Below, in pieces: positions 56,854 through 59,451 of a stretch of DNA of 64,000 nt (its first letter is position 1; each line of letters begins with the position of its first letter). The notes under the pieces were generated by a model. The model was not told where the DNA came from. It searched no databases and saw only the letters and a program-made list of their open reading frames with translations. This stretch comes from an uncultured Rhodospirillaceae bacterium (lineage in GTDB: Bacteria > Pseudomonadota > Alphaproteobacteria > Micavibrionales > UBA2020): NCBI GenBank assembly GCA_964476835.1, contig CAYZCE010000003.1, positions 8,579 to 72,578 on the forward strand. The letters run 5' to 3'. Position numbers and translations under genes: made by a program.

Positions 56854-59451
56854 ATGTCTGATAACGCCTACGAAGGCTCTCGTTACCTGATTGACGCCGA
56901 GAACGGCCGTCAATACATGGTTGATTTTTCCAGCAACGGCCGCAAGCCGAAGGTTGATGTCTTTGCTGCCGATCCGCGCGATGCCGTCTTCACGCCGGGC
57001 GAAACCGTTTACGCCTTCGACGATGATATCCAGTATGAGAGTGTTGGCTCCCACATCTACCTGAAAACCCGGATCTTCGAAATCAACGCCAACAGTGCCG
57101 GCGAGGCCTACGACATCAACTTCTCGCCGGAAATCCGCTACGACCTGAACGTTTCGGCCGACGGGATGTCGGCGAAGTGGAGGCTGACCCAGGACGCGCG
57201 CGCGCTGATCACCGGTGAAGGCATCGACGTTCTGGCTGTGCCCGACAACATCGCGATCGACCTCACGGACATCGCGGATTTCGACACCAAGGGCCGCCCC
57301 GTCATCGATTACAACGACTTGAAGCTTTTGCCGTTCCCGCCGCATCATGCGGGCGGATCGGCGGCACTCGCGCGCGCCGGCGCCAAATCGTCCCCCCGGC
57401 AAGCATTCAACCAAGTTTCCAACCAACGTCAGAGGAACAAACCAGTGGCTGACTATACCCAGAACGACAATGCCCTCGAAGGCGCGCTGAAAAAGTACTG
57501 CGTCGACCTGACGGAACAGGCTGTGGACGGCATGCTCGATCCCGTCATCGGCCGCGAAGCCGAGACGAGCCACGCGCTCAAGATCCTGACGCGCCGCAAG
57601 CAGTCGAGCCTGTGCTTCACCGGCGATTCCGGCGTGGGCAAGACCGCAATGTTCTCGGCGATCGCGCAGCGCATCGTCGACGACAAGGGCGAACTGCCGG
57701 AAAGCCTGCGCAACGCGCGCGTCCTGCAGCTCGACGTGCAGGCGCTGACGGCGGGCACCAAGTACCGCGGCGACCTCGAAGACCGCGTCAAGGTGCTGGT
57801 CAAGGGCCTGACCGAACGCGAAGGCGTGTTCCGCGGCCAGAAGATCATCCTCGCCATCGACGAACTGCACGCGCAGCTCGCTTCCGGCGGCGCCAGCGAC
57901 GCCAACAACCTCGGCAACCTGCTCAAGCCGTTCTTCACCTGCAAGGGCATCTCGGTCATGGGCGCGACCACCGATGCGGAATACCGCAAGTACATCGAGG
58001 CGGACGCCGCGCAAGTCCGCCGCTTCGAGCGCCTTTACATCGGCGAGCCCACCACGGAAGCGACCGTCGCCATCATCAAGAAGCTGTGGCCGCTGACGCG
58101 CGCGCACAACAGCCTCGCGGCCGACCTCTCGGATGAGGACATCCGCTACATCGTCACCATGACCGACCGCTATGCGCCGCAGGAATGCCAGCCGTCCAAG
58201 GCCGAGAAGGTCATGAACACGGCGGCCGCCAGCGCCGAGTTCAACCACCGCGACCATGTCGCGCGCGAAGACATCATCGCCGCCGTGGCGCAGATGTCGG
58301 GCCTGCCCGTGTCGTTCCTCAACCAGAGCGACGACCAGCGCTTCCTCCAGCTCGAGCAGGAACTGCCGAACGAGATCCTCGGCCAGCCCGGCGTCGCCCG
58401 CGTCGTCGACGGCCTGATCGGCGCGCGCTCCGGCCTCACCGACGAAAACCAGCCGCGCGGCTGCTTCGTCTTCCAGGGCCCGACCGGCACCGGCAAGACC
58501 GAGCTTTGCAAGGCACTGGCGCGCAAGCTGTTCGGCAGCGAAGACGCGCTCATCAAGCTCGACATGTCCGAATACGCCGAGAAGTTCGCGATCAGCCGCC
58601 TGATCGGCGCGCCTCCGGGCTACGTCGGCTTCGACAGCGCCGAGCCGGCGCTGACCGAGAAGATCCGCAAGCGCCCGTACTCCATCCTGCTGCTCGATGA
58701 AATCGAGAAGGCGCACCCGGACGTCTTCAACGTCCTGCTGCCCGCCCTCAACGACGGCCGCATGACCGACAACCAAGGCAAAGTCGCGCTCTTCAACAAC
58801 GTCATCGTCGTCATGACGACCAACGCCGGCGCCGCCGCCGCGACCGCGCTGCTGCAGGGCGAGAAGAAGGGCATCACCTTTGGCCTGCCCGACGTCTTCA
58901 ACGAGTCGGCCTCCGACATGGAAGAGCAGATCAAGAAGATCTACAAGGAAGCGGTCACCAAGCCGCAAGGCCCGGACAAGCCCGCGCTGTTCCGTCCCGA
59001 GATGATCAACCGCATCGAGGAGCTGGGCGGCTTCATCCAGTTCGTCCCGCTCGCCAAGAGCGTCGTTAGCACGCTGGTGTCGCGCGAGATCGACAAGGTC
59101 AACGTGCGCCTCTCCAGCCAGGCGGGCGCCAACGTCAAGGGCCTCAGCATCGAGGTCACCGACGCGGTCAAGGCGCAGCTCTCCGACCTGGGTTACGACC
59201 CGGCGATGGGCGCGCGTCCGCTCCGCAAGGTGGTGCGCGAAAAGATCTCCAACCGATTCGGCAAGTGGCTGCTCGCCAACCGCGCAGCGGCCGAGGCCTT
59301 CATCGCCGAGAACGGCCCCGCCAAGATCGTGATCGACAATCTCGATACCTTCACCGGCGCGCTCGTCAAGGCGACGGCAATTGCGAACGACAACGCGGAA
59401 AAGAAAGCCGTCGCGCCGCGCAAGAAGAACTCGATCACGCCGAAAAAGTAA
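56854..59451 (+). CDS. ClpA/ClpB-class double-ring AAA+ ATPase with an unrecognised N-terminal domain of about 200 aa and no long middle domain
   Basis: D1 has Walker A GDSGVGKT, Walker B IILAIDELH and RRFERLYIGEP. D2 has Walker A GPTGTGKT, Walker B ILLLDEIEKAH and sensor-2 GARPLRK. The N-terminal 200 aa do not resemble the Clp N-domain repeat. Confidence 0.88.
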   Translation: MSDNAYEGSRYLIDAENGRQYMVDFSSNGRKPKVDVFAADPRDAVFTPGETVYAFDDDIQYESVGSHIYLKTRIFEINANSAGEAYDINFSPEIRYDLNVSADGMSAKWRLTQDARALITGEGIDVLAVPDNIAIDLTDIADFDTKGRPVIDYNDLKLLPFPPHHAGGSAALARAGAKSSPRQAFNQVSNQRQRNKPVADYTQNDNALEGALKKYCVDLTEQAVDGMLDPVIGREAETSHALKILTRRKQSSLCFTGDSGVGKTAMFSAIAQRIVDDKGELPESLRNARVLQLDVQALTAGTKYRGDLEDRVKVLVKGLTEREGVFRGQKIILAIDELHAQLASGGASDANNLGNLLKPFFTCKGISVMGATTDAEYRKYIEADAAQVRRFERLYIGEPTTEATVAIIKKLWPLTRAHNSLAADLSDEDIRYIVTMTDRYAPQECQPSKAEKVMNTAAASAEFNHRDHVAREDIIAAVAQMSGLPVSFLNQSDDQRFLQLEQELPNEILGQPGVARVVDGLIGARSGLTDENQPRGCFVFQGPTGTGKTELCKALARKLFGSEDALIKLDMSEYAEKFAISRLIGAPPGYVGFDSAEPALTEKIRKRPYSILLLDEIEKAHPDVFNVLLPALNDGRMTDNQGKVALFNNVIVVMTTNAGAAAATALLQGEKKGITFGLPDVFNESASDMEEQIKKIYKEAVTKPQGPDKPALFRPEMINRIEELGGFIQFVPLAKSVVSTLVSREIDKVNVRLSSQAGANVKGLSIEVTDAVKAQLSDLGYDPAMGARPLRKVVREKISNRFGKWLLANRAAAEAFIAENGPAKIVIDNLDTFTGALVKATAIANDNAEKKAVAPRKKNSITPKK

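Follow-up and report, generated by a model that had tools for sequence, protein, structure and literature searches.

The DNA analysed here (the window) is a stretch of 64,000 nucleotides from an uncultured Rhodospirillaceae bacterium of the Alphaproteobacteria (assembly GCA_964476835.1, contig CAYZCE010000003.1, positions 8,579 to 72,578 of the forward strand). The subject of this work is a gene in the window, at 56854-59451, that encodes a Clp-like protein with two AAA+ rings and points away from an operon of a Dot/Icm-type type IVB secretion system (T4BSS). The Clp-like protein represents a distinct new clade of Hsp100 proteins, a previously undescribed family with a ClpA-like layout (N-domain, D1, D2, and no middle domain), and in most relatives its gene also stands next to the dot genes. 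The features of the gene and of its flanks are as follows.

56656..56853, no strand: AT-rich divergent intergenic region of 198 bp between the DsbG-like gene of the dot operon and the Clp-like gene
56779..56816, plus strand: window variant of a putative promoter/leader element conserved in the family, CTTGATT-N17-TACCTT followed by ATGCAAAC; the upstream GTAATTT box is degenerate (CTGAATTTT)
56854..59451, plus strand: Clp/Hsp100-family gene, 865 amino acids plus stop codon
56854..57381, plus strand: novel N-domain, amino acids 1-176, ending in a conserved FPPHH motif
57382..57468, plus strand: variable disordered linker, amino acids ~177-205, with a predicted local distance difference test score (pLDDT) of <50 for residues 181-197
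57469..58248, plus strand: D1 AAA+ ring, with Walker A GDSGVGKT, Walker B ILAIDE, pore loop KYRG, and arginine finger RRF
58249..59289, plus strand: D2 AAA+ ring and D2-small domain, with Walker A GPTGTGKT, Walker B LLLDEIE, and pore loop GYVG
58864..58899, plus strand: flexible D2 surface loop, amino acids 671-682 (KKGITFGLPDVF), at the position of the IGL (ClpP-docking) loop of ClpA
59380..59448, plus strand: disordered C-terminal tail, amino acids 843-865 (IANDNAEKKAVAPRKKNSITPKK), with a conserved [AST]ND[ND] motif and a Lys/Arg/Pro-rich end
59473..59502, plus strand: intrinsic terminator, consisting of an A-run, GGCCCCGG-AAT-CCGGGGCC, and T6

The Clp-like gene and its product

The open reading frame (ORF) at 56854-59451 on the plus strand is a genuine gene, whose G+C contents of 0.63/0.41/0.88 at the three codon positions are a coding signature. 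Long ORFs are found on both strands because the G+C content of the window is 63%, and an overlapping antisense ORF of 914 amino acids was rejected: its translation is Arg/Gly/Ala-rich nonsense with no recognisable motif, and it fails the codon-position G+C filter. A preliminary description of this DNA, made from its letters, had taken the product for a two-ring AAA+ unfoldase of the ClpA/B class with both nucleotide-binding domains intact. This was borne out, in that all five motifs it had quoted (GDSGVGKT, IILAIDELH, GPTGTGKT, LLLDEIEKAH, and GARPLRK) are present in the translation and that Walker A and B, sensor-1, sensor-2, and one arginine finger per ring are invariant in 51 sequences of the family. 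In D1, the residues K263, D336, E337, and R390 are invariant, and D2 also has sensor-1 N657, arginine finger R720, and the sensor-2 sequence GARP. The position of the pore-loop tyrosine is occupied by Tyr or Phe in 48 of the 51 sequences in D1 and in all 51 in D2. The invariance of the motor residues therefore indicates that both rings are under selection as active ATPases.

Pfam identified AAA_2 (residues 534-723, E = 4e-49), AAA, AAA_lid_9, and ClpB_D2-small in the Clp-like protein, and Clp_N (PF02861) was searched for with Pfam and found neither in the protein nor in any of its 51 relatives. The best sequence matches among solved structures were ClpB, ClpC, and ClpA. The full-length AlphaFold2 model had a pLDDT of 84.5, and its core superposed on chains of ClpC, ClpA, and ClpB with target-normalised TM-scores of ~0.8. 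The alignment to ClpB jumps from ClpB residue 404 to residue 528, and therefore the middle domain is missing; direct alignment with E. coli ClpA and ClpB gave a gap of ~125 columns relative to ClpB, one that ClpA has as well, in agreement with the preliminary observation that there is no coiled-coil middle domain of ClpB length. With Walker A and B, a sensor, an arginine finger, and pore-loop aromatics in each module, together with the D2-small domain, the protein has all the hallmarks of the class-1 two-ring AAA+ proteins of the Hsp100/Clp group. It is best explained as a double-ring Hsp100/Clp unfoldase that is cytoplasmic, forms hexamers, and belongs to a new family; by analogy with ClpA, ClpB, and ClpC, ATP hydrolysis in both rings would drive the tyrosine pore loops to thread and unfold client proteins.

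Unfolded clients may be passed on to ClpP through a hydrophobic loop in D2. Residues 671-682, which follow sensor-1, form a longer loop that sits at the place of the IGL loop when aligned with E. coli ClpA and has a pLDDT of <50 in the full-length model, as expected of a flexible loop. The segment after it, ASDMEEQIKKIY, is a helix and resembles STDAMEEIKKIF of ClpA. The tripeptide of this loop is FGL in the window. Among 50 members, it is hydrophobic-Gly-hydrophobic in 23 (mostly MGF or IGF), hydrophobic-small-hydrophobic in 20 (e.g., LAL), and neither in 7. Coupling to ClpP is therefore plausible yet not a conserved hallmark of the family.

The gene appears to have control signals of its own. 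The intergenic region that separates it from the dot operon has a G+C content of 31%, compared with 63% for the window, and the preliminary description was right that this region is AT-rich and divergent, while its length is 198 rather than 300 bp. The 300 nucleotides upstream of every family member are similarly AT-rich, with 29-47% G+C. An 18-nucleotide element, TTCTGTAATTTTAYCTTG, is present without mismatch in 8 distinct loci (e.g., L001 9894-9911) whose orthologs are ~50% identical as proteins, and it is followed after ~17 nucleotides by TA(A/C)C(T/C)T and then by (T)TACGTAAAC. The strict composite pattern gave 12 matches in ~0.55 Mb of related sequence, all of which are 75-115 nucleotides upstream of the start codon of a Clp-like gene. 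No other gene of the window or of the first 33 related loci, the dot and ankyrin genes included, was found to have the element before it. Sites for sigma-32, CtrA, and EcfG and the CpxR box were judged by eye as candidates for this putative promoter and were discarded for unfit spacings, and a promoter common to the dot or ankyrin genes was not found.

At the other end, a terminator hairpin (-33.9 kcal/mol, z = -3.4) followed by a T-run begins 22 nucleotides past the stop codon, confirming the preliminary claim that the gene has its own terminator before three ankyrin genes. A promoter-like site lies downstream of this terminator, before the ankyrin genes. The earlier view that the Clp-like gene heads an ankyrin run holds for the window insofar as three ankyrin genes follow on the same strand; they do not follow in relatives, and the terminator and the promoter-like site lie between them and the Clp-like gene. 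Going by these predicted signals, the Clp-like gene stands as a monocistronic unit between a promoter and a terminator of its own.

A new Hsp100 clade with a private N-domain

The Clp-like protein falls below the cut-off of every curated NCBIfam model with which it was compared: it scored 532 bits with ClpB (TIGR03346, cut-off 1232), 492.5 bits with ClpA (TIGR02639, cut-off 993), 427 bits with TssH (cut-off 885), 401 bits with ClpK (cut-off 1900), and 387 bits with ClpG (cut-off 1900). D1 alone does not discriminate (ClpB 221, TssH 212, and ClpA 208 bits), and D2 alone leans towards ClpB (315 bits vs 274 for ClpA). A search of 5.8 billion protein clusters recovered about 50 full-length relatives with 46-63% identity, none of which has Clp_N; below the weakest full-length relative, at 756 bits, there was a steep drop to ordinary ClpB at ~450 bits. 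On plasmids no close relative was found, the best match being 42% identical. The source databases label the members of the family just "AAA family ATPase" or "ClpC". In a neighbour-joining tree (Kimura distances, 654 conserved columns, 200 bootstraps), which gives a rough placement among ClpA, ClpB, ClpC, ClpL, ClpK, and TssH references taken from annotated records, the family, including two very divergent members, was monophyletic in 100% of the bootstraps and formed a clade of its own outside ClpB, which it joined in 0.5% of the bootstraps; it joined ClpK in 0%. ClpA was its weak sister, with a bootstrap of 50%.

The likeness to ClpA needs to be set against the differences. ClpA and the Clp-like protein share two rings without a middle domain, one continuous stretch of alignment to the ClpA model, the flexible loop at the IGL position with a similar helix after it (ASDMEEQIKKIY vs STDAMEEIKKIF), and the weak sister grouping. 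However, the two are 35% identical over the 654 conserved columns, the IGL-type tripeptide is only partly conserved in the Clp-like family, and, unlike ClpA, the family has inserts (GVFRGQK in D1, EELGGF after the D2 arginine finger, and 6 amino acids in D2-small) and an extra C-terminal tail. Because it has no Clp_N domain, the Clp-like protein also lacks the ClpS-binding site of ClpA. The AAA+ cores score highest with ClpB/Hsp104, with 38-40% identity, whereas both Clp_N and the coiled-coil middle domain that couples ClpB to DnaK are absent, and the loop at the ClpP-docking position is present in the Clp-like protein and not in ClpB. ClpG/ClpK and ClpL are similar in being Hsp100 proteins with a non-canonical N-terminal domain that gives autonomous client binding; they differ in that they retain middle domains, have unrelated N-domains, are 35-37% identical, and group with ClpC and ClpB.

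The N-domain sets the family apart: in place of the helical Clp_N there is an all-beta domain private to this lineage. Its AlphaFold2 model, built with 36 homologs, had a pLDDT of 93.2 and a predicted TM-score of 0.86 and consists of ten beta strands followed by a helix and extended segments, with short helices. R19, Q20, Y21, E50, A54, D56, and the FPPHH motif are conserved across the family within residues 1-176. Pfam and NCBIfam gave no family match for the N-domain, even when searched member by member at E <= 5, and a Foldseek search of the model against PDB and BFVD gave nothing at E <= 0.001, with best TM-scores of ~0.2. The proposal of a novel, beta-rich N-domain that does not resemble that of Clp thus holds, and no known adaptor-binding domain was matched; the domain was first described as spanning the first 200 residues or so, and it is indeed beta-rich, with an extent of ~176 residues before the linker, which in relatives is longer and Pro/Thr/Ala-rich. 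A kinship to YDG adhesin repeats was considered and set aside as a weak lead: the matches were weak, multi-repeat matches in giant YDG/MBG proteins, and Pfam YDG gave no reciprocal match to the N-domain.

A word-indexed protein search with the N-domain alignment gave no matches. A profile search of 1.84 billion representative proteins gave 68, which besides the Clp-like proteins comprise stand-alone proteins of ~280-380 amino acids (the N-domain, then a linker, then a conserved C-terminal domain of another kind, TLVEKKxLGDGxTLKxxFNFExRRVxE...LGGxPRPL), two proteins that carry the N-domain in tandem, and a group of 220-240 amino acids. One stand-alone paralog shares a metagenome-assembled genome (MAG) with a Clp-like gene and adjoins addAB, not T4BSS genes; a stand-alone N-domain gene was looked for in the window and the first 33 related loci, and none was found. 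These further N-domain proteins may be adaptors or competitors. In the Clp-like protein, the private N-domain would select clients or bind an adaptor.

The C-terminal tail is another conserved feature of the family. A [AST]ND[ND] motif is located 15-30 residues from the C-terminus, with a Lys/Arg/Pro-rich stretch after it, and in the window the tail reads IANDNAEKKAVA. The start of the ssrA tag is the part bound by SspB. At locus L003, an SspB gene and a two-piece transfer-messenger RNA (tmRNA), whose tag is ANDNAPARAQVALAA, lie 3 kb from the Clp-like gene, and the ANDN motif of the tail is identical to the start of this tag; the tmRNA tag of Caulobacter is reported in the literature as AANDNFAEEFAVAA. 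The tail is without a C-terminal ClpX signal of the LAA type. It could be a tether for SspB, a means of regulating turnover, a ligand of the protein's own N-domain, or an export signal.

Tails with AN[DN]N 20-22 residues from the C-terminus followed by a Lys/Pro-rich end were also observed in the window as a whole, on four unrelated proteins, where 0.02 would be expected from shuffles:

9552-10532, plus strand: DUF6782 putative metallopeptidase
20296-22974, minus strand: FadB-like protein
43107-44831, minus strand: RNase J homolog
56854-59448, plus strand: the Clp-like protein

An inserted DNA repeat as the source of these common tails was rejected, since the DNA aligns at the ANDN codons and nowhere else. 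An ANDN tail is missing from all three ankyrin proteins of the window. Similar tails were seen near T4BSS loci on several proteins that have no Pfam family, and at locus L014 on two ankyrin proteins.

Linkage to the dot block in relatives

The operon from which the Clp-like gene diverges, and the genes that surround the pair in the window, are as follows.

52278..56655, minus strand: divergent operon of DsbG-like gene, SLT, dotD, dotC, and dotB, tightly spaced or overlapping
55687-56655, minus strand: DsbG-like gene, first gene of the dotDCB operon, encoding a thiol:disulfide interchange protein (86 bits, cut-off 124)
55221-55676, minus strand: SLT
54609-55184, minus strand: dotD
53435-54631, minus strand: dotC
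52278-53456, minus strand: dotB
50411-52153, minus strand: protein of 580 amino acids with STN and TcpQ domains, following dotB
59595..62767, plus strand: three ankyrin-repeat genes downstream of the Clp-like gene, specific to the window and outside the conserved unit

To place this pair in relatives, one genome per species, from 185,579 species, was scanned with D2 peptides specific to the family. The scan gave 30 loci with the Clp-like gene, all in MAGs, most of which are labelled Alphaproteobacteria, Micavibrio sp., Rhodospirillales/Rhodospirillaceae, or Bdellovibrionales; the remaining labels are two Proteobacteria, one "bacterium", and one Patescibacteria, which is probably mis-binned. 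Orthologs are not widespread, amounting to about 50 protein clusters that all come from one alphaproteobacterial MAG clade. Neighbouring genes in the genome loci were found by tblastn of the window proteins, and 21 loci were informative, having at least 5 kb of upstream sequence (one had 2.7 kb). In 17 of these, the DsbG-like gene, SLT, dotD, dotC, and dotB are upstream on the opposite strand. Metagenome contigs were scanned with the SLT protein, giving 80 loci. Where the SLT identity was at least 63% and enough upstream sequence was available, the Clp-like gene was found in nine of ten loci, with gaps to the dot block of 0.5-5.5 kb, and it is also present at L074 (60% SLT identity), which makes 10 of 11 close metagenome T4BSS loci. 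The Clp-like proteins of L074 and L106 are very divergent members that have a shorter N-domain and have kept a PPQH-type motif, an MGF loop, and an N[DS]N tail.

The divergent pairing with the dot operon, proposed earlier from the window, is therefore kept in relatives, and its conservation extends beyond the close ones, the divergent L074 and L106 included, which makes the Clp-like gene a clade-specific accessory associated with the T4BSS by genomic linkage. The linkage has survived many insertions, because ankyrin and other genes fill spacers whose length ranges from 0.2 to 5.5 kb. At L016 (6935-9531), a frameshift divides the Clp-like gene into two overlapping ORFs, which means either a pseudogene or an assembly error. 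In the metagenomes at large, 254 SLT-linked matches indicated at least two lineages of Dot/Icm-like T4BSS, and in the more distant one (lineage B) the DsbG-like gene and SLT are separated by an additional gene.

Of all neighbours of the Clp-like gene, the best conserved encodes a RimI-like GNAT acetyltransferase (43 bits, cut-off 86; L001 9023-9610), which is 55-91% identical among loci and absent from the window. In 28 of 38 loci it directly precedes the Clp-like gene, on the same strand and with a median gap of 332 nucleotides; the family differs from ClpA in having a GNAT gene, and not clpS, upstream. A GNAT gene divergent from the dot block is also found at L048, L086, and L091. Downstream, 18 loci have a convergent DUF6782 gene and 16 have a HIT gene. 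The older arrangement was likely Clp-like <- GNAT / dsbG-like -> SLT -> dotD -> dotC -> dotB, with ankyrin and other genes inserted repeatedly in the gap; compared with it, the window has lost the GNAT gene and has ankyrin genes downstream instead. The GNAT and the Clp-like gene may form a functional pair. A small gene for a modifying enzyme beside an Hsp100 gene recalls ClpC with McsB (mark-and-read), and this analogy suggests that the GNAT might write a mark that is read by the N-domain. ClpC differs, however, in having Clp_N and a short middle domain, and in the window the GNAT partner is absent.

The window is chromosomal and carries gidA, parAB, mreBCD, PBP2/rodA, and dnaN. Its Dot/Icm-type T4BSS is encoded in at least two blocks, of which block 1 (30900-39500) contains DotI, a DotI-family paralog, DotH, a TrbI-type DotG, and neighbours, and block 2 (50.4-56.7 kb) contains the DsbG-like gene, SLT, dotD, dotC, dotB, and the TcpQ/STN protein. 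The DsbG-like gene stands at the head of the operon in essentially all related T4BSS loci. The pair of STN and TcpQ, which are secretin-associated domains, is outside the canonical Dot/Icm list of Legionella. Between the two blocks lie four tandem paralogous genes (45060-50301, minus strand) for proteins of 420-444 amino acids whose N-termini look like signal peptides and which match no Pfam family. Many related T4BSS loci have kept these genes, likewise downstream of dotB and the TcpQ/STN gene, and they may represent an undescribed family of periplasmic or outer-membrane T4BSS components. Located between the T4BSS blocks are flgK and a possible flgL (39669-43097, plus strand), as is the RNase J homolog, and flgK/flgL also adjoin dotB at six loci of the distant T4BSS lineage (L100, L103, L104, L110, L112, and L116). 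A chromosomal Dot/Icm-like T4BSS with ankyrin and Sel1 proteins is thus present in a high-GC (63%), flagellated, uncultured alphaproteobacterium.

Possible roles of the Clp-like protein

We favour, tentatively, the reading that the Clp-like protein is an Hsp100 unfoldase of a new family with clients connected to the T4BSS. Such clients would be the most likely ones because the gene has stayed beside dsbG-like-SLT-dotD-dotC-dotB, usually with the GNAT gene, an argument from synteny. The clients could be effectors, for which the abundant ankyrin proteins are candidates, or parts of the machine that need unfolding, quality control, or turnover. A role dedicated to the T4BSS is possible.

Several observations weigh against T4BSS-connected clients. 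No T4BSS gene was found within 7-10 kb of the Clp-like gene at L003, L008, L010, and L016, the Clp-like gene was found within 8-10 kb at none of the 18 loci of the distant T4BSS lineage, and L048, L086, and L091 keep the GNAT gene with no Clp-like gene within 9 kb. The protein should therefore be regarded as an accessory of one clade rather than as a core part of Dot/Icm. DUF6782 and HIT, which are likewise conserved next to the Clp-like gene, have the look of housekeeping genes; the Clp-like gene ends in a terminator of its own and has a conserved putative promoter that was seen at no other gene across the window and the first 33 loci; and a hydrophobic-Gly-hydrophobic tripeptide in the D2 loop is found in under half of the members (23 of 50). 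Furthermore, all members belong to one T4BSS-bearing clade, and co-occurrence may therefore reflect shared ancestry and not function. No Clp-type unfoldase is known to be part of a Dot/Icm system.

The strongest rival view, which we consider a real possibility though a somewhat doubtful one, is that the Clp-like protein is a lineage-specific paralog for general proteostasis, either a ClpP partner of the ClpA type that has diverged strongly or an unfoldase acting alone under stress like ClpG and ClpL, and that its nearness to dotDCB is inherited synteny that means nothing for function. A conserved putative promoter of its own, the loci without T4BSS genes, and the DUF6782 and HIT neighbours would all fit this view, as would the SspB gene and tmRNA at L003 and a C-terminal tail that mimics the SspB-binding start of the ssrA tag. 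The weak sister relationship to ClpA and the docking-type loop, which is MGF or IGF in many members, point to the same kind of role, and the stand-alone N-domain paralog adjoins addAB instead of T4BSS genes. However, a general paralog would not readily explain why the family is confined to a T4BSS-bearing clade and absent from the other ~185,000 species genomes scanned, or why the linkage to the dot block persists at ~50% protein identity across variable spacers. In addition, no ClpP or ClpS gene is nearby, and about half of the members have not conserved the hydrophobic-Gly-hydrophobic tripeptide.

A stronger form of the favoured reading is that the Clp-like protein is the first AAA+ unfoldase dedicated to secretion by a T4BSS, a functional counterpart of ClpV in type VI secretion (T6SS) or of the unfolding ATPase of the type III secretion system. 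With its private beta N-domain it would recognise effectors, or a mark made on them by the GNAT, and it would unfold stably folded cargo such as ankyrin-repeat proteins for the DotL pathway, or for ClpP if export fails. We regard this form as unlikely. No paper describing an Hsp100 protein tied to a T4BSS was found in the literature, and the ~27 Dot/Icm proteins of Legionella in PMC11338181 include no Clp-type unfoldase, which agrees with the preliminary remark that none is a standard Dot/Icm component. The likeness to ClpV/TssH is one of concept, namely an Hsp100 paralog that is encoded beside a secretion system and is possibly dedicated to it. TssH has a Clp_N-like N-domain and a middle domain, of which the Clp-like protein has neither, and the link of TssH to the T6SS was shown by experiment, whereas that of the Clp-like gene to the T4BSS is one of genome position. 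No T6SS genes were found in the window.

The parallel with ClpV can also be drawn differently, with the Clp-like protein acting as a recycler that disassembles or remodels a T4BSS assembly (a subcomplex of DotB, DotC, DotD, or DotH, or a pilus-like polymer) instead of acting on secreted clients. ClpV and ClpB recycle the T6SS sheath, which provides a precedent, and the gene is conserved beside the structural genes dotD, dotC, and dotB. This role is nevertheless improbable: Dot/Icm is not known to have a contractile or polymeric element in need of recycling, the N-domain has no relation to that of ClpV, TssH is the most distant of the Hsp100 references (29% identity), and the T4BSS of lineage B works without the Clp-like gene. 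Finally, it is likewise improbable that the protein is itself a T4BSS substrate that acts as an unfoldase inside a host cell with its basic disordered tail as the export signal. In favour, this Lys/Arg/Pro-rich tail is conserved in length, with its motif ~20-25 amino acids from the end, and has counterparts on the L014 ankyrin proteins and on proteins near T4BSS loci that have no Pfam family. Against this, typical effectors differ from the gene, which is an ortholog in single copy whose synteny and promoter are conserved; in the window, the enzyme of the fadBA operon and the RNase J homolog have the tail as well, and none of the three ankyrin proteins does; and the match of ANDN to the tmRNA tag points to a cytoplasmic partner. 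Both the effector and the ClpV-like roles are less likely than a proteostasis paralog.

Hsp100 N-domains decide which clients are taken, and a confidently modelled N-domain without a recognisable fold or family is therefore a new specificity module to study; this domain and the T4BSS linkage would both surprise a specialist. The reviews that were found name effector-translocating T4BSS in the Legionellales and a few other Gammaproteobacteria only, and a Dot/Icm-like system on the chromosome of high-GC, flagellated, uncultured alphaproteobacteria, accompanied by ankyrin and Sel1 proteins, looks under-described. For the unfolding of folded effectors before Dot/Icm export, an Hsp100 protein kept by dotD, dotC, and dotB across deep divergence is a testable candidate. 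If the Clp-like protein is not linked to the T4BSS, its ssrA-like tail and its pairing with a GNAT would even so suggest that the Clp network of bacteria has a regulatory arrangement that is new.

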